Source of the DNA: Nitrospirota bacterium
GTDB taxonomy: Bacteria > Nitrospirota > UBA9217
DNA: 64,000 nucleotides
Assembly (NCBI GenBank): GCA_963751455.1
Contig: CAVVUN010000002.1
Location: 64,001-128,000 of the forward strand
Direction: 5' to 3'
Shown here piece by piece: positions 9,021-17,124 of this stretch. The notes beneath the pieces are model-generated. The model was not told the DNA's origin. It was given only the letters and a program-made list of their open reading frames with translations, and made no database searches. A program made the position numbers and the translations under genes. How positions within the stretch are numbered: the stretch's first letter is position 1; each line of letters starts with the position of its first letter.

Positions 9021-9318
9021 AAAACCGTTCTTCGGAAAATTGGGGTGTCTTCGCTCAACCTCGGATAGATTTGGAGAAATCATCGCGCAGCTCTTGGCAT
9101 TTAATAATTTTGCATTTTTCAATTTGCAATATGCATTTTGCAATAAGTTTTCCAAACAACCAGTTTGTCGCTCATATCCGCCCCACTTTTCTCCCCATTT
9201 TTTTGTTGCAATTATTTACAACATACTGTACAGTTGCCATGGTTTCTAATAAGGGCTCATCGAGCGAGATCGGCATCTTTGGATCCTGTCAGAATAAAAC
9301 ATATTCAGGAGGGATCGG

Positions 9319-9516: not shown

Positions 9517-9956
9517 GAGCCCCATTAAAAAATATTCAACTGTTTTTGCGAATCCCGAGTTACTTCAGGATAAACTGCGCGAAGTAATCCAGTTTTCACA
9601 AAAATAGAAAATCAAAAACATGTTTCGCCTCTCGACGCATACCCCAAAAATTCTCCTCCAAATCTTCTCCGGACTTCTTGCTATTTAAAGAATCTTATAG
9701 TAGGCTCTGTTTGAACGGGGCCAATCACCCGGTAAAGATTAAACCTCTCTCATCTCCTCCCCGTGCATGTCCAGATTTGGTAATACCCGAAACTGGATAT
9801 TAGTGGTTTCCAAACAGCTATTCCATGAACTGCATATTAGTCAATTTGTAAAATTAAGAAATACATATACTTGCCTGATCTATAGGCTCGGTAGAAATAA
9901 ATTCGCATTACGTCGGGCCGTCCGTAGAATAACTTGTTAATATGTGGAGGCACTGA

Positions 9957-10448
9957 ATGTTCGGCCTATCAAAAAAAGAGCAAGCATCCGAAAAACTCCA
10001 ATGCGGTACCAAGTCCATTTTAAAAAGTGGGTTCTTCTCTGCTCAATATGCTGAAGACTATGGACTTAACGAGCAAGCATCGGCTTGGCTATACACAGAA
10101 GCATTAGCTCACCAGATATATGTTCTGATAGCTATTTTTAATAATACCTTCGGAAAGAAGTACGAATGGGCTACCCCTCAGTTCATGATAAAGGCGATTA
10201 ATGAAGCCATTGTAGATTATGAAATCCAGGAAGGTTCAACGCCAGGCTCTATAAGCTCATTCATCTTCCGACGTTGCGCAGAAATGGATGCCTTGTCACC
10301 GCAAGATCGGGTCGCCGGAGAGCACTTTCGGCAATCGGCCAGTAAAGTCGCTGAATTCGATTCGCAAGCAGACCGAGCCGCTATTGCAGATAGGCTTAGC
10401 ATCGTAGCCAAGCAATATTTCGATAATGCCATAAATATGTTCAAGTAA
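9957..10448 (+). CDS. Hypothetical protein (cassette region)
   Basis: RBS ggagg; 163 aa ORF in an AT-rich region. Confidence 0.7.
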   Translation: MFGLSKKEQASEKLQCGTKSILKSGFFSAQYAEDYGLNEQASAWLYTEALAHQIYVLIAIFNNTFGKKYEWATPQFMIKAINEAIVDYEIQEGSTPGSISSFIFRRCAEMDALSPQDRVAGEHFRQSASKVAEFDSQADRAAIADRLSIVAKQYFDNAINMFK

Positions 10449-10517
10449 AAAACAAGCGTAAGCCACTTCTTGTTGGTGACACACGATGTCACCTGTCCTC
10501 ATTATGAGGTTAATAAG

Positions 10518-11210
10518 ATGACATTACCTTTGACAGAGACCATCGACTGCCCTCTTTGTGGTGCAGCAATACCCTTTAGTTCATATCAGAGTGTCAATGT
10601 CACCAACGATCCGGAGCTGAAGGATAGGCTTCTCCAAAGACAGCTGAATCGTTACCGGTGCCGCAATTGCGGCCGTGAAGGTGAGGTCATCCATGACTGC
10701 CTCTACCACGATATGAAATCTAAAACACTGATCTGGCTTAAGCTACCGGACGATGGTATGAACTTGGCTATCGATTCCTCTGCTAACGTATTCATTGGGT
10801 TAACCGAAGACTATCGTTTTCGGCTGGTCGGGTCACTGGACGAATTAATAGAGAAAGTAAAAATTTTCGATGACGGCTACGATGATATTACTATGGCGAT
10901 CTTCACGTTCATGATAAGCGTTGGAAAGCATATCGACACCACTAAGCGTTTATTTTACTACCGTACGCGTAATCCATTTATAGGTAAAAAACAAATTGAA
11001 TTCGTCGAGGTCAACAGTGACGGCTTGCATTTTTACCGATATCCACTACAGCCAATATTCACAAATGCAGCCACCTTCGGACCACAGATTCGTCAATACA
11101 TCACGCGGCGTGGTCACTGGCTGCATGTTAATCCGAGCGTTATCACTAAAGCCTTGGAACAGGCTGGCTTAATACGTCGAGTACTTTTAGAAACAGATAG
11201 CTTAGAGTAG
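10518..11210 (+). CDS. CpXC-domain protein
   Basis: CPLCG..SVNVT.DPELK..CRNCG..LYHD pattern; RBS gagg. Confidence 0.85.
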   Translation: MTLPLTETIDCPLCGAAIPFSSYQSVNVTNDPELKDRLLQRQLNRYRCRNCGREGEVIHDCLYHDMKSKTLIWLKLPDDGMNLAIDSSANVFIGLTEDYRFRLVGSLDELIEKVKIFDDGYDDITMAIFTFMISVGKHIDTTKRLFYYRTRNPFIGKKQIEFVEVNSDGLHFYRYPLQPIFTNAATFGPQIRQYITRRGHWLHVNPSVITKALEQAGLIRRVLLETDSLE

Positions 11211-11212
11211 GG

Positions 11213-11242
11213 GTAGGTCGGGTAGAGCAAAGCGAAACCCGA
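11213..11242 (+). repeat. GTAG-type REP-like palindrome
   Basis: GTAGGTCGGGT..AGCAAAGCGAA..ACCCGA hairpin preceded by GTAG. Confidence 0.55.
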
Positions 11243-11250
11243 TGCTGTGA

Positions 11251-11310
11251 TTTCAACATGCGCGTCCACATCGACTCGCCAAAGATCGGCGAGTGACGCG
11301 CGTGTTTAGT
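11251..11310 (+). mobile_element. Integron attC site 1
   Basis: TTTCAAC-5nt-CGTCCAC-central hairpin-GTGACG-5nt-GTTTAGT (R'', L'', L', R' layout with an extrahelical base in L''). Confidence 0.8.
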
Positions 11311-11413
11311 CATCAAAAATAATAATGCCAATTCCCGAATCACAACAATTGAACGATGGGTTGGTTAGAGACAACCTCACTGGTCCTTTTGAGTTTGTCA
11401 CCAAGGATATCGA

Positions 11414-11881
11414 TTGCTGAATGTTTTCGTAGATGCTGACGCATGCCCTGTAAAACAAGAGGTCTACCGGGTTGCAGCCAGGTATCATATAGGTGTCACC
11501 TTGGTTGCCAACTCCTGGATGCGCGTGCCCACAGAGGATGGAATCGTACTTCAAGTTGTCGGCAATGGGTTAGATGAGGCCGATAACTGGGTTGCTGCCA
11601 ATGTCACTCCCCACGACATCGTGATCACGGCTGATATTCTTCTAGCGAGCCGATGCATCAAGGCTGGTGCGCACACAATCGGCCCAACGGGGAAGGCCTT
11701 CACCGAGGAAAACATCGGAGATGCTGTCGCAACTCGTAACCTGCTTGCAGAGCTGCGTGGGAACGGCGAGATCACGGGGGGGCCGGCTCCCTTCTCCAAG
11801 CGCGACAGGTCAAGTTTTTTGCAGAAACTGGACCAGGTGATTCAGATGGTTCGGCGCGAATATCCCAGCAAAGTCGGTTAG
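11414..11881 (+). CDS. YaiI/YqxD family protein (DUF188)
   Basis: VDADACPVK, ADNW, VITADILLA and GGPAPF motifs. Confidence 0.93.
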   Translation: MLNVFVDADACPVKQEVYRVAARYHIGVTLVANSWMRVPTEDGIVLQVVGNGLDEADNWVAANVTPHDIVITADILLASRCIKAGAHTIGPTGKAFTEENIGDAVATRNLLAELRGNGEITGGPAPFSKRDRSSFLQKLDQVIQMVRREYPSKVG

Positions 11882-11976
11882 CGGTGTGCCGGGGATCACG
11901 CTCAAATCCCTTTGCCAACTTTATTTTATGTTACCGTAAGTCGTTCCGATAATAACTTGTTGATCCAGACAAAGAC

Positions 11977-12981
11977 ATGCATAAAATACCAATAATGCAT
12001 AACCGCGAATCGGATGTTGACAGTATCCTTCGCAGGCAACTTTCCAAAGAAGGCTTCCGCATATTACCTAAGGTTCGCGTCGCAGACGTCATTGCAAAGG
12101 ATGCAAGCGATAAATTATCACAGAGGGAATTTGACTATTACACGAGATCGCACTTCGATTTTCTCGTAACGCGGAACAATATGCCCGTCTTTGCAGTCGA
12201 ATTTGATGGCGCACATCACTTTGTTGACGATCGCAGCATCGAGAACGACGTTATCAAAAACAGGCTCTGCAAAGAGGCTGGTTTACCTCTCCTACGTATC
12301 ACATCAACCGAGGTTGAGGAGAATGACAGAATTACTTTGCTAGATTATATGTTGATGCGCTACGTGTCTTGGGGAAAGGAATATCCCAAGATAATCGAAG
12401 AAATCAAAGAAATTGCTGGCTCTCTCTCGCCCGATAGTGACCCTGCAGATTTTGCAATCGATCTTGATCCTGCATTCCACTTCGACCTAAAACACCCGTT
12501 CCCACCCCGTGATCGGATATTGGAGCGTCTCTGGAGAAATCATAAAATCGCATGGACTATGACAAGATCTGACAGGCAACGCAATGCGGAATATCTGTGT
12601 GACATTGTATATGGTCGGTCGGGCCAACTGAAGAATGATCAATTTCACACCTGTACAAGATGCGCGATATTATGGCAGAGGTCTGGAAAGCCTGATGCTC
12701 CACTCCAATCTGAGGAAGTTACGGTAAGCTTACGTTCGTGGTTGCCTCTTCTTACTGAGGTGCCAGCCCCAGATGTTTGGAATTTCAAAGACAAGAACGG
12801 CAATGCCATAGATCCGACTAAATTACTTGAGCAGTTCAAGTCACGCATTGCATCCATGTGGTTTCCTGACCTGCCTGGACTTAGCGCGTGGGATATTACT
12901 GAAAATTACAGCGAGTATCTAGGATTTCGCGCGATAGAACGCTGGGCAAGAAAAAATAATATCAACGGTTGGCTTCAATAA
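11977..12981 (+). CDS. DUF2726-domain (nuclease-like fold) protein
   Basis: PKVRVADV, HFDFLV, AVEFDG.HH, D..KN.LC..AGLPLLRI. Confidence 0.85.
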   Translation: MHKIPIMHNRESDVDSILRRQLSKEGFRILPKVRVADVIAKDASDKLSQREFDYYTRSHFDFLVTRNNMPVFAVEFDGAHHFVDDRSIENDVIKNRLCKEAGLPLLRITSTEVEENDRITLLDYMLMRYVSWGKEYPKIIEEIKEIAGSLSPDSDPADFAIDLDPAFHFDLKHPFPPRDRILERLWRNHKIAWTMTRSDRQRNAEYLCDIVYGRSGQLKNDQFHTCTRCAILWQRSGKPDAPLQSEEVTVSLRSWLPLLTEVPAPDVWNFKDKNGNAIDPTKLLEQFKSRIASMWFPDLPGLSAWDITENYSEYLGFRAIERWARKNNINGWLQ

Positions 12982-13039
12982 GGCTCGAGCAACATTCGAT
13001 AAACATTTTGCTACGAGTAAGGGAATTTAAGGCTAACGC

Positions 13040-13729
13040 ATGGAGATTGACATTAAGAAACTTTTGGCTCCCCGGATAAAAAAGCATTGTTTATCATTAT
13101 ATCAGTCCGGGGAATACAAACATGCATCACGAGAAGCAATGGTTCAGGTCGAGCTGGCGCTGCGCGAAAGGGGCCGCTTGGGCTCAGAGTCTTTCGGTAA
13201 AGGTTTAATTCAGCGGCTATTCAAAGGTCATCAGGGTGTCCTTCTCAGGGTACCTTTAGGTGACGATTTGCAAGAAGTGGCGCAGAAATACTTTGAAGGT
13301 GTCTTCTCATACTACAGAAACTATACAGCACACGATGGTGCTCGTATTGATGAGCTGTCCTCGCTCAGAATCTTGGTTGTCGCGTCAGAACTTTTAGAAA
13401 TGCTGAATGCATCCGCACTCACTATTTCAGATCGAGGAGGAATCGAAGGGATAGTTCGGCTAGTGAATTGCGGAACCTCACAGAGGCTTTTGGAACTATT
13501 GCGCCTGCTTGACGGCTATTGGATGCCAGAACTTACTTATGATGGGTTATTCGAAGATCTTTATAAGAGTGGGTTCAACGATGATCATCTTGAATCAATT
13601 ATAGAAATCGGATTAATCGAAATGAGCAAATTTACCGGCGAGGACCCGTGGAACGAGAAACCCGAAACTATGGAACGTTTTAATCTAACTGAGCTTGGTC
13701 GTCAAGTCTTAAAAAATATGAGTTCATAA
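13040..13729 (+). CDS. TIGR02391-family (HEPN-like) protein
   Basis: Y..ASREAM..VE..LR, FGKGLI..LF and YRNYTAH motifs. Confidence 0.8.
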   Translation: MEIDIKKLLAPRIKKHCLSLYQSGEYKHASREAMVQVELALRERGRLGSESFGKGLIQRLFKGHQGVLLRVPLGDDLQEVAQKYFEGVFSYYRNYTAHDGARIDELSSLRILVVASELLEMLNASALTISDRGGIEGIVRLVNCGTSQRLLELLRLLDGYWMPELTYDGLFEDLYKSGFNDDHLESIIEIGLIEMSKFTGEDPWNEKPETMERFNLTELGRQVLKNMSS

Positions 13730-13740
13730 ACTCGAAGTGA

Positions 13741-13797
13741 TCTCAACCAGGCGGTCAACATCGACTCGCCTTGCGGCGAGTTACCGCCGCGTTAGAT
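13741..13797 (+). mobile_element. Integron attC site 2
   Basis: TCTCAAC-CAGGC-GGTCAAC-central hairpin-GTTACC-GCCGC-GTTAGAT; central ATCGACTCGCC shared with attC 1. Confidence 0.85.
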
Positions 13798-13802
13798 TGA
13801 AA

Positions 13803-15662
13803 ATGAAAAAACTACTCAGCGAAACGCATCCGGAACTCAAAAAAGAATGGCATCCTACCGTAAATAGTAATTTTCGGTATGAAGATGCTTTTACCAGGTC
13901 GCATCGTGTTGTTTGGTGGATTTGTAAGAAAAATCCTAGCCACACATGGCAAGCAAAAATCATAAACCGTTCTATAAAAGGATATGGCTGTCTTTATTGT
14001 GCTGGGCGATTAGTCTCTCCAGAAAGATCATTAGCTGCTTTGTATCCCGAAGTAGCTGCAGAATGGCACCCCGCAAAAAATGAAAATCTGTCACCTGATA
14101 AGGTTGCTCCATTCAGTAATAAAAAAGCCTGGTGGAAATGCAAGTCTGGCCATGAATGGCATTCTTCGATTCAACATAGAACTAAAGAGCATACGAGATG
14201 CAAGCAATGTCGTATTGCCGAACGCTCTCTCATAAATACCCATCCAGATATTGCAAACGAGTGGCATCCGACAAAAAACTTGTCTTTGACGGTAAATGAT
14301 GTTACCCACGGAATGAGCAAGACTGTTTGGTGGAAATGTCGAGAAGGTCATGTGTGGCAGGCTAAAGTTTCGAGTCGTGCTGATGATAAAACGGGGTGTC
14401 TGAAATGTAACATAGCATCACGCAAAAACAAAAGCCGATATGTACCAATAACTGAGGCAATGCCAGAGTTAGCCAAGCAATGGCATCCGACCAAGAATCT
14501 TCCTCTGATGCCAAATCAAGTATTGCCAGGTTCTTCTAAGATGATCTGGTGGATTTGCCCACGGAATGCTGTGCATGTCTGGCATGCCTCCGCAAATAAT
14601 AGAAGAAAAGGGCGTGGTTGTCCATACTGTAGCAGACGGCCAAGCTTTGCGGAAAGATTTCCTGATTTGGCGAAAGAATGGCACCCAACAAAGAACGGTG
14701 ATCTGAAGCCGACAGATGTTTTATCCGGAAGCGCTCGGCGGGTTTGGTGGCGCTGTTTAAAAGATCCAACATATGAGTGGCAATCTACGGTAACTAATAG
14801 AACTCATAGCAAAGGGCGTCAAAAAATATGCCCTCATTGTTCAGGATATGCTGTTACGGAAAAAACAAATCTCGCAATTAACCATCCGCTAATTGCAAAG
14901 GAATGGCACCCGACAAAAAATTCGGGGTTGACCCCTAGTCAAGTAACTAGAGCAAGCGCTAAAAAAGTGTGGTGGGTATGCAGTATAAACCCTGAACATG
15001 AATGGTTAGCCCAAATTAAAAACCGAACGATTCTGGGAACTGGCTGTCCAATCTGTGAGGGTGAAAACAAAATTAAAAGAGTTTATGAGGCTCTATATGC
15101 ATCTGCGCAAGACAATTATGATTTTTTAAAGACATTTACAAAAGAGCTTTCGAATATAAGGCGACTGTTGAAGCATAGGTTGCTAAATGACTTATACGTT
15201 AAGCAACCGGTATTAAGAATGATATATGCTGCTGCAATAACAGCGATGGAAACCTATTTATGCGATGCTTTCTTTCACAAGGTAACAACAAATGATCTCC
15301 TAATCGAAAAATTTCTAAAGTCAGTACCGGAATTTAAAGAGCGAAAATATGCAGTAACAGATATTCTTGATTGGAAAAATCAGATACACAAAAAAGTGAG
15401 TGAATATCTTTTAGATATTGTCTGGCATAACTTAGCGCGGGTTCAGATACTTTACGAAAATGTGCTTGAAATTAAATTTCCGGACAGGATTGATCATATT
15501 CATCGTGGGATTGCGATTCGTCATGATATTGTCCATCGAAATGGCAGGACAAAGACAGGCAAATTCCATGGCTTGAAAGTACTTGAAATCGAGATACTCC
15601 TTAAATCACTTGAAGACTTCATTACCGATATTGACAAGCAATTAAAATCTATCGCGCGATAA
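13803..15662 (+). CDS. Six tandem zinc-ribbon (treble-clef/DUF4379-like) repeats fused to a C-terminal HEPN-like domain
   Basis: Six (E/Q)WHP..N..WWxC..H.W..CxxC units; C-terminal RHDIVHRNG (R-x4-H). ATG lies 6 nt after attC 2. Confidence 0.85.
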   Translation: MKKLLSETHPELKKEWHPTVNSNFRYEDAFTRSHRVVWWICKKNPSHTWQAKIINRSIKGYGCLYCAGRLVSPERSLAALYPEVAAEWHPAKNENLSPDKVAPFSNKKAWWKCKSGHEWHSSIQHRTKEHTRCKQCRIAERSLINTHPDIANEWHPTKNLSLTVNDVTHGMSKTVWWKCREGHVWQAKVSSRADDKTGCLKCNIASRKNKSRYVPITEAMPELAKQWHPTKNLPLMPNQVLPGSSKMIWWICPRNAVHVWHASANNRRKGRGCPYCSRRPSFAERFPDLAKEWHPTKNGDLKPTDVLSGSARRVWWRCLKDPTYEWQSTVTNRTHSKGRQKICPHCSGYAVTEKTNLAINHPLIAKEWHPTKNSGLTPSQVTRASAKKVWWVCSINPEHEWLAQIKNRTILGTGCPICEGENKIKRVYEALYASAQDNYDFLKTFTKELSNIRRLLKHRLLNDLYVKQPVLRMIYAAAITAMETYLCDAFFHKVTTNDLLIEKFLKSVPEFKERKYAVTDILDWKNQIHKKVSEYLLDIVWHNLARVQILYENVLEIKFPDRIDHIHRGIAIRHDIVHRNGRTKTGKFHGLKVLEIEILLKSLEDFITDIDKQLKSIAR

Positions 15663-15702
15663 TCTAAATGACAATTCCAGAACAACTATACAAAAAGATC
15701 GG

Positions 15703-15761
15703 TTCTAACCTGCGCCTCGACAGCGACGCGCCAAAGGCGGCGCGTCAGGCGCGCGTTCAAA
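15703..15761 (+). mobile_element. Integron attC site 3
   Basis: TTCTAAC-CTGCG-CCTCGAC-central hairpin-GTCAGG-CGCGC-GTTCAAA; its TCTAAC complements the GTTAGA that opens this cassette. Confidence 0.85.
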
Positions 15762-15784
15762 CTGTAAAATTAAGGAAAAAAACC

Positions 15785-16243
15785 ATGAACTCGAGTCTGA
15801 TCGTTCATGCTGCGGTTTTCGCGCTCTTACTTGGGGGAACCGCCTGCGCCGGCGGTCTTCGCGACTTCTCGAGCGACGGGTGCAGCTTGTTTCCGGACGG
15901 CACTGTCAAAGACCGCAAGTTGTGGTGCGAGTGCTGCTTTGTCCACGATATCGCTTATTGGCAGGGCGGAACGAAGGACGAGAAAAAACAGGCTGACAGG
16001 ATCCTGCGCGACTGCGTTTACGAGAAGACCGGGAACAAGTCTCTTGCAGACACAATGTATGAAGCGGTCAGTTTGGGCGGCCAGCCGGTCTTCCCCACAT
16101 GGTATCGCTGGGGATACGGATGGAAATACGGGAGGGCATTTGAATCGCTGACGGAGCAGGAACAACAGCAGGTGCGGGAGAGGCTTGGTGCTTACTATCA
16201 GGCACATCCTTCAGAATACTGCGGACTGCCCATTAAAAAGTGA
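15785..16243 (+). CDS. Exported Cys-rich protein with phospholipase A2-like motif
   Basis: Signal peptide; SDGCSLFPDG, CCFVHDIAY, AD..LRDCV and RWGYGW motifs. Confidence 0.7.
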   Translation: MNSSLIVHAAVFALLLGGTACAGGLRDFSSDGCSLFPDGTVKDRKLWCECCFVHDIAYWQGGTKDEKKQADRILRDCVYEKTGNKSLADTMYEAVSLGGQPVFPTWYRWGYGWKYGRAFESLTEQEQQQVRERLGAYYQAHPSEYCGLPIKK

Positions 16244-16256
16244 CGAACAAAGAATA

Positions 16257-16393
16257 TTGATGCATTCGTAAGAAGTCAGAAAATACCCAATTTCGTCATA
16301 CCGGCGAACGCCGGTATCCAGTCTTTTCAATAAGTTCGATAACCACTGGACCCCGGTTTTCACCGGGGAGACGACTTTTTACGAGATCATCAA
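16257..16393. mobile_element. MITE-like element with internal REP-like hairpins
   Basis: Terminal IRs TTGATGCATTCGTAAGAAGTC / GACTTTTTACGAGATCATCAA flanked by TA; internal ATACCGGCG-AA-CGCCGGTAT and CCCCGG..CCGGGG hairpins. Confidence 0.7.
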
Positions 16394-16537
16394 TATTGCC
16401 GCAAAAATGCGCAAGAAGCGCAAGAAAACCGTAAGAGAGTTTTGATTTTGAATTCCTTTGCGTATTATGCGCATTTGTGGCAAAAAAGCGTTTACTGTTT
16501 GCTTGGGGTCAAAAACATTCTGCAGGAGGTTTATAGT

Positions 16538-17041: not shown

Positions 17042-17124
17042 CCCTGTTGGAATTTCTCCAACAGGGTATTGCCAACAGTGCTCTTATAATTTTTCATTTT
17101 GCAATTTGCAATTATCTAGTTGCT

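Follow-up and report, generated by a model that had tools for sequence, protein, structure and literature searches.

An integron cassette array with two attI sites and no adjacent integrase in a Nitrospirota genome

The window analyzed here is a 64,000-nucleotide stretch of a Nitrospirota bacterium genome (G000:C2:64001-128000; the genome, G000, comprises 5.72 Mb in 15 contigs), and positions are counted from its first letter unless another contig is given. It carries an array of integron gene cassettes with no integrase gene (intI) beside it. The array begins at attI-1 and continues with a two-gene cassette, attC1, a yaiI gene joined to a truncated attI-2 and having no attC, a second two-gene cassette, attC2, a zinc-ribbon/HEPN-like cassette and attC3, after which host DNA follows. 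A preliminary description, made from the letters alone, had placed a group of clustered attC sites without an integron-integrase (CALIN) at 9928..16260; the classification was correct, while the end of the array is the attC3 crossover (15755) and not 16260. As had also been described, all array genes lie on one strand, the forward (+) strand. The features of the array are as follows.

9766-9938 (+): platform remnant without intI, with two operator-like direct repeats, a decayed cassette promoter (Pc) region and attI-1
9917-9938 (+): attI-1 core, predicted crossover after G 9936
9957-10448 (+): cassette 1, gene 1, 163 aa, no Pfam, NCBIfam or PADLOC hit
10518-11210 (+): cassette 1, gene 2, CpXC-domain protein (PF14353, E 5e-28)
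11213-11242 (+): hairpin of GTAG type between the gene and attC1, a repetitive extragenic palindromic (REP)-like element; 10 blast matches in the genome
11251-11310 (+): attC1, 60 bp, crossover after G 11304
11305-11959 (+): yaiI unit, from the attC1 crossover to the truncated attI-2, no attC
11414-11881 (+): yaiI/YqxD family gene (PF02639, E 1e-44; NF001095 above cut-off)
11918-11961 (+): truncated attI-2, about 41 bp before crossover G 11959, extended -10 of Pc retained
11977-12981 (+): cassette 2, gene 1, DUF2726 protein (PF10881, E 7e-19)
13040-13729 (+): cassette 2, gene 2, TIGR02391 (Hypoth_Ymh) protein, weak PD-Lambda-3_B hit (E 9e-4)
13741-13797 (+): attC2, 57 bp, crossover after G 13791
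13803-15662 (+): cassette 3, six DUF4379 zinc-ribbon stretches (PF14311) and a C-terminal RiboL-PSP-HEPN-like domain
15703-15761 (+): attC3, 59 bp, crossover G 15755, the end of the array

The attC sites and their cassettes

Each attC is composed of an AAC-ending R'', a 5-bp spacer, an 8-base L'' with an extra C (the extrahelical G of the attC bottom strand), a GC-rich variable stem, a 7-base L', a 5-bp spacer and a GTT-starting R'. The bottom strands of attC1, attC2 and attC3 fold at -18.9, -16.5 and -19.2 kcal/mol, with z values of -4.3, -3.4 and -2.1. A profile-free, rule-based scan of both strands of the 64 kb returned exactly these three sites and no others, with thresholds that were chosen when the three sites were already known; Markov controls gave 0.0 and 0.017 sites per 6.5 kb (60 runs each). 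The folds and the scan thus confirmed the three 57-60 bp sites with the right R''-L''-L'-R' spacing that had been described before. They share one strand at spacings of 2490 and 1962 bp, below the 4 kb used to define a CALIN.

The complementarity of cassette ends proposed in the preliminary description fared less evenly. The starts of cassettes 1-3 match their own R'' at 5/7, 5/7 and 6/7 positions, whereas the GTTC/GAAC pair reaches 4/7 and forms no hairpin. Genome-wide, in 19 adjacent pairs, R' agrees with the R'' of the next cassette at 2.4 of 4 variable bases compared to 1.4 of 4 for its own, and this better fit to the following cassette argues for real cassette shuffling. Between the paired genes (10445-10520 and 12970-13045) the rule scan found no hidden attC; the first interval folds as three small hairpins and the second folds weakly, and cassettes 1 and 2 do carry two genes each, as had been suggested. 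The hairpin that precedes attC1 is paired with an attC in relatives also, where matches to 11213-11310 in G016 and G004 span both elements.

The AT-richness of the island was likewise borne out, with a GC content of 0.41-0.45 in the cassette genes compared to 0.514 in the genome; yaiI, at 0.55, is the richer gene. Comparisons were made with 63 relatives at the protein level and 40 at the DNA level, none of the same genus. Protein searches covered three of the five cassette genes, and the 163-aa, DUF2726 and TIGR02391 proteins were each found in 0/63 relatives (the last two at E 1e-15). Amongst the cassette genes, the DNA search recovered just the zinc-ribbon gene, full-length once; a homologue of cassette 3 in G005 (69% identical) is followed by an attC. 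The cassette genes that were searched for are accessory, in keeping with a CALIN. The HEPN-like assignment of cassette 3 (Atlas 0.92; PF18735 on 17% of that cluster) is accompanied by an RxxxxH motif at residue 573, and the product is predicted to be a defence-type RNase.

None of the genome's 15 PF00589 matches falls inside the window and IntI gave no tblastn match there, in agreement with the earlier statement that the window holds no tyrosine recombinase; Rfam returned 0 hits in the window. The closest intI on the same contig is about 367 kb from the array. Altogether, the locus is a real integron cassette array without an adjacent integrase and a CALIN as IntegronFinder defines it (two or more attC sites, no nearby intI), because the attC anatomy, the scan result, the R'/R'' pattern, the lack of PF00589 in the window and the absence of cassette proteins from relatives all agree with that label.

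The attI sites, the yaiI unit and the right-hand end

A 23-bp repeat stands at the start of cassette 1 and again at the start of cassette 2. The pattern taken from it has 27 matches in 61 family genomes compared to 9 for the reversed control, and 20 of the 27 show the same spacing; two matches in relatives, at L069 and L071, fall within a coding region and were regarded as chance hits. In relatives, 13 of the 20 informative loci have the motif 164-229 bp upstream of a divergent intI, with 0 hits on the opposite strand and a background of 5.5e-6 per base. At the other seven loci, the best matrix match in six is a weaker GTT-ending site at 140-259 bp from intI. By its placement in these sequences, the repeated motif is the attI of the family; a dif/Xer-like reading was dropped once the motif had been mapped next to intI. 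With matrices of 32 and 22 bp, trained on the 13 intI-adjacent sites of relatives only, the site at 11959 ranks first in the genome (37.5 bits, 32-bp matrix) and the site at 9936 seventh, and the 22-bp matrix assigns 28.9 bits to attI-2 and 21.9 bits to attI-1, within a leave-one-out range of 11.2-30.2.

Over its full length, the remnant that carries attI-1 can be aligned with platforms that adjoin intI in relatives (platform hidden Markov model, E 0.008), and about 170 bp of platform is retained there, with both operator-like repeats in register. At attI-2 the extended -10 has been kept and the -35 is displaced by a few bases. The start of the array is an integron platform remnant with an attI, so the locus is not a bare cassette cluster; of the parts of a complete integron, an attI heading the array is present and an intI adjoining it is not. 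Upstream of attI-1, a candidate start codon occurs at the distance expected for intI, beside chance-level tblastn hits only.

The DNA of the yaiI unit is 86-92% identical to copies in six relatives of other genera, compared with about 70% for flanking host genes. In G004 a different attC precedes the same first 20 bases, and at L111 and L114 yaiI begins about 20 bp after an attC. The junction of yaiI with attI-2 lies about 37 bp past the stop codon, at a microhomology and not clearly at an R'' box. The open reading frame (ORF) starts at an att crossover and has its attC replaced by part of an attI, and the unit is likely an unusual cassette of the delta-attI type. Such cassettes, with the form attC-ORF-truncated attI, are IntI1 substrates in clinical integrons (PMC12901181), and the stretch attC1-yaiI-attI-2 has that form; the published cases belong to mobile clinical integrons with IntI1, whereas the present one is chromosomal, from an environmental lineage and without an integrase. 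The unit likely arose when a deletion at the microhomology linked the end of yaiI with the -35 region of Pc in an attI; the fusion would have become both a cassette of delta-attI type and a point of entry inside the array, one with part of a promoter. Whatever its origin, yaiI with the truncated attI has predicted IntI crossover points at both ends. The yaiI leader also contains a 31-codon frame (11325-11417) that is conserved in the leaders of relatives and has no Pfam hit; it may be a remnant of another cassette's start.

Two features lie beyond the array.

15785-16243 (+): probable host gene, DUF1353-like (weak), outside the array
16258-16392 (no strand): miniature inverted-repeat transposable element (MITE), 135 bp, with terminal inverted repeats and a 5-bp target duplication (16253-16257 / 16393-16397)

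The gene at 15785-16243 is present in 33/63 relatives and has a host-like GC content at third codon positions (0.66). Of its 29 loci examined, 26 were informative, and none of the 26 has an attC on either side of it. By these comparisons it is probably a host gene and no cassette. The MITE noticed in the preliminary description is real; the proposal that it had replaced a fourth, last attC was rejected, as the MITE is an ordinary insertion and the preceding gene has the properties of a host gene. The genome holds 19 MITE copies longer than 100 bp, 17 of which lie more than 8 kb from any attC, and no autonomous partner was found among paired ends less than 4 kb apart. Further short dispersed repeats occur beside the MITE (16398-16482) and around the island (9104-9144 and 17086-17112). 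No empty site was found among the relatives, all of other genera; the genes that flank the array are not linked with one another in the 29 and 18 loci of their homologues.

Integron loci elsewhere in the genome and in the family

The genome contains 59 attC sites in 26 loci, a set that likely includes a few false sites, and many of these loci are single attC sites; the attC hidden Markov model that we built was seeded from the window's three sites. In 10 of the 26 loci an attI score of at least 14 bits occurs within 4.5 kb upstream, compared to 1.6% of random places, and three of these ten carry intI remnants. The genome search for intI that had been recommended revealed several copies, every one of them broken. 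The first ends before the C-terminal catalytic region and stands beside a RAYT-like transposase; the second has a 108-bp repeat insert with a stop, the third a 147-bp repeat insert and a frameshift, and the fourth consists of the N-terminal part only. Shorter intI stubs occur at four more platforms, and the decay is graded. An intact intI could be missing from the assembly.

Additional observations were made on these copies and arrays. Two small repeat families, distinct from the MITE, that interrupt intI (G000:C2:448264-448370 and C3:357437-357575) have 13 and 6 other full-length matches, and RAYT-like transposase copies are numerous in the genome. A GAAC-N4-GTTC palindrome, resembling a Gram-positive-type SOS box, lies upstream of intI at G000:C1:553896-553911 and also at the C3 and C1:612827 intI copies. 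Two separate arrays (G000:C1:395211-396209 and C12:75045-76043) each contain what appears to be one and the same cassette gene of 332 aa, its attC nearly unchanged between them, a sign of cassette copying between loci.

A search of 64 genomes with the attI-1 platform revealed platforms in 8/63 relatives, and the 11 loci inspected were all attI platforms, most of them without intI. Three of the five searched genomes of genus g11 had platform matches, and ten cross-genome locus pairs in this genus share more than 400 bp. Five of the ten run colinearly from host DNA into the platform, stop 2-12 bp past the GTT and continue as unrelated DNA (identities of 91.5%, 84.3%, 90.5%, 86.5% and a weaker 70%), and one pair has a common, internally deleted intI stub. 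An intact-looking IntI is encoded elsewhere in the G024 genome. The divergence of orthologous intI-less platforms at the crossover points to integrase action in trans. On the simplest reading of these alignments, the loss of intI at these loci preceded the split of the species, and cassettes were gained or lost later through an IntI acting in trans. By extension from the relatives only, and not from the present locus, orphan platforms of the family likely stay active in trans.

Each of three g11 genomes (L280-L293; G024, G048, G065) has five to seven attI platforms, several of them orthologous. A gene of 115 aa (L079:1771-2118, minus strand; also L054, L062, L066, L076 and L101) has no match in NCBIfam or PADLOC. 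In L066 and L101 it is placed between intI and attI; elsewhere it heads integrase-less arrays, where it is followed by AT-rich repeats and attI. Its product is a possible accessory platform protein. The family's IntI proteins at L080-L103 are encoded by frames of about 460-560 aa and carry a long N-terminal extension ahead of the TIGR02249 match. At L077/L088 (G070:C19) an intact intI starts about 170 bp downstream of the attI; seen from intI, this is its own divergent attI.

Origin of the array and its meaning

We consider it probable that the three-attC array with its two attI sites and no nearby intI is the remnant of a platform whose intI was deleted, and that it would exchange cassettes if IntI were supplied. 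IntI would have inserted the cassettes by attC x attI recombination at attI-1 and attI-2; with the platform's own intI deleted, exchange would take place whenever IntI came from elsewhere. In this genome, the array is probably frozen at present.

Several results weigh against this explanation. No intI remnant was found upstream of attI-1, where tblastn hits are at chance level only. The Pc boxes of attI-1 are degenerate, and the promoter/terminator scan performed at chance level (13 promoters found, 13.7 expected). The 13 training sites of the matrices were picked with a pattern drawn from the window's own motif, so the independent evidence is the fixed position of the motif beside intI and not its score. 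Within the genome, 16 of the 26 attC loci have no strong attI upstream. In g11, the other five of the ten pairs end upstream of the GTT or have no defined GTT, and no IntI over the cut-off was found in G048 and G065.

A broader proposal, which we put forward tentatively, is that the Nitrospirota family has a distributed integron, in which many intI-less promoter-attI platforms all load cassettes through one IntI in trans. Some of these platforms would be copied as units and some would be nested inside arrays, as here, at separate loci.

A different history, which appears unlikely, is that no intI was ever present at this locus and that a whole intI-less promoter-attI module came here as a copy, carried for instance on a circle excised by IntI, and received its cassettes in trans. 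The lack of any intI trace fits that history, as does the passage of the DNA past attC3 straight into a host gene. Additionally, a second attI class is represented in the genome by a 305-bp promoter-attI module without intI; its copies at three loci begin at the same 5' end, and two of them are 97% identical.

G000:C15:1070389-1070695, C3:328439-328745 and C1:397385-397695 (L244-L246): 305-bp modules, 97% and 85% identical

Every copy of the module begins after a GTT or ATT triplet, as though IntI had inserted it. Against the copying of a module, no other copy has its 5' end in common with attI-1 or attI-2, and the platforms of their own class show intI stubs of graded length, a gradation that fits deletion in place.

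Similarly doubtful is the possibility that two integrons stand in tandem, the first being attI-1 with one cassette, followed by yaiI as an ordinary flanking gene, not mobile as a cassette, and by a second integron whose intI was deleted down to attI-2. Consistent with this, homologous yaiI loci, of distant genes, have an attC within 200 bp downstream in 0/69 cases and a preceding attC in 1/69, which speaks against yaiI being a cassette; its GC content is host-like, and at L109 a native yaiI tail matches the window up to 11917, ending in a hexamer like the Pc -35 box. The close clade of yaiI genes, however, shows 86-94% DNA identity across genera in unrelated contexts, and yaiI starts at an attC crossover in G004, L111 and L114, with both of its ends here now being IntI crossover points.

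Entry of the cassettes at secondary chromosomal sites (attG, GWT consensus), with the resemblance to attI arising by chance, is very improbable. Insertion at attG was demonstrated by Loot et al. (bioRxiv 10.1101/2022.09.11.507474), who, in the available part of that preprint, find that GWT suffices and propose this route for small CALINs and for lone attC sites without integron-integrases (SALINs). The many single-attC loci of this genome and the scattering of cassettes over chromosomal loci away from intI resemble that description. The two entry sites of the array, however, are true attI homologues that match the family attI far beyond a bare GWT and have platform homology upstream. The platform alignment largely refutes off-target insertion, which may still hold for the right-hand junction at 15755. 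A reading of the genes as core genes and of the hairpins as terminators or REP-like repeats can be set aside, since the genome is rich in small repeats but the sites have full attC anatomy and the chimeric R'/R'' pattern, and the genes are missing from 63 relatives.

The deleted-intI platform can be compared with systems already described. In the available text of Cury et al. 2016 (PMC4889954), CALINs are defined, their proposed origins are intI loss, rearrangement and secondary-site insertion, and the search for attI is stated to be impossible outside classes 1-3. The present array is like a CALIN in having at least two attC sites on one strand, no nearby intI, few cassettes and mostly unknown genes; that definition, as far as the available text goes, is silent on attI, whereas here two attI sites and part of a platform remain. 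An available portion of a Xanthomonas preprint (bioRxiv 10.1101/2025.06.18.660453) describes inactivated intI and CALINs that are mobilizable in trans, and the broken intI and conserved CALIN positions are shared with the present family. The Xanthomonas arrays derive from one ancestral platform at ilvD, the attI at those CALINs is not named in that portion, and strains that share an intI lesion usually have identical arrays too, whereas in the present family orthologous platforms without intI differ from the crossover onward. In the part available of an archaeal integron preprint, attI is reported beside intI only. No description of multi-copy orphan attI sites heading CALINs was found in full-text searches that covered few subscription journals.

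CALINs and truncated-attI cassettes are already known, and the locus is a real CALIN, of a variant form in which two attI sites persist together with a probable delta-attI cassette. By itself it is a modest example, with a predicted HEPN-type defence gene amongst its cargo. The origin and activity of CALINs, whether by intI loss, rearrangement or attG insertion, is an open question, in part because attI could not be searched for outside integron classes 1-3. In this family the attI can be defined from sequence, and two copies head and split one CALIN. Together with platforms that change at the crossover, this makes the idea of CALINs as docking sites served in trans directly testable by an attC x attI assay. 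If true, a distributed integron would make many CALINs live capture sites and not dead remnants.

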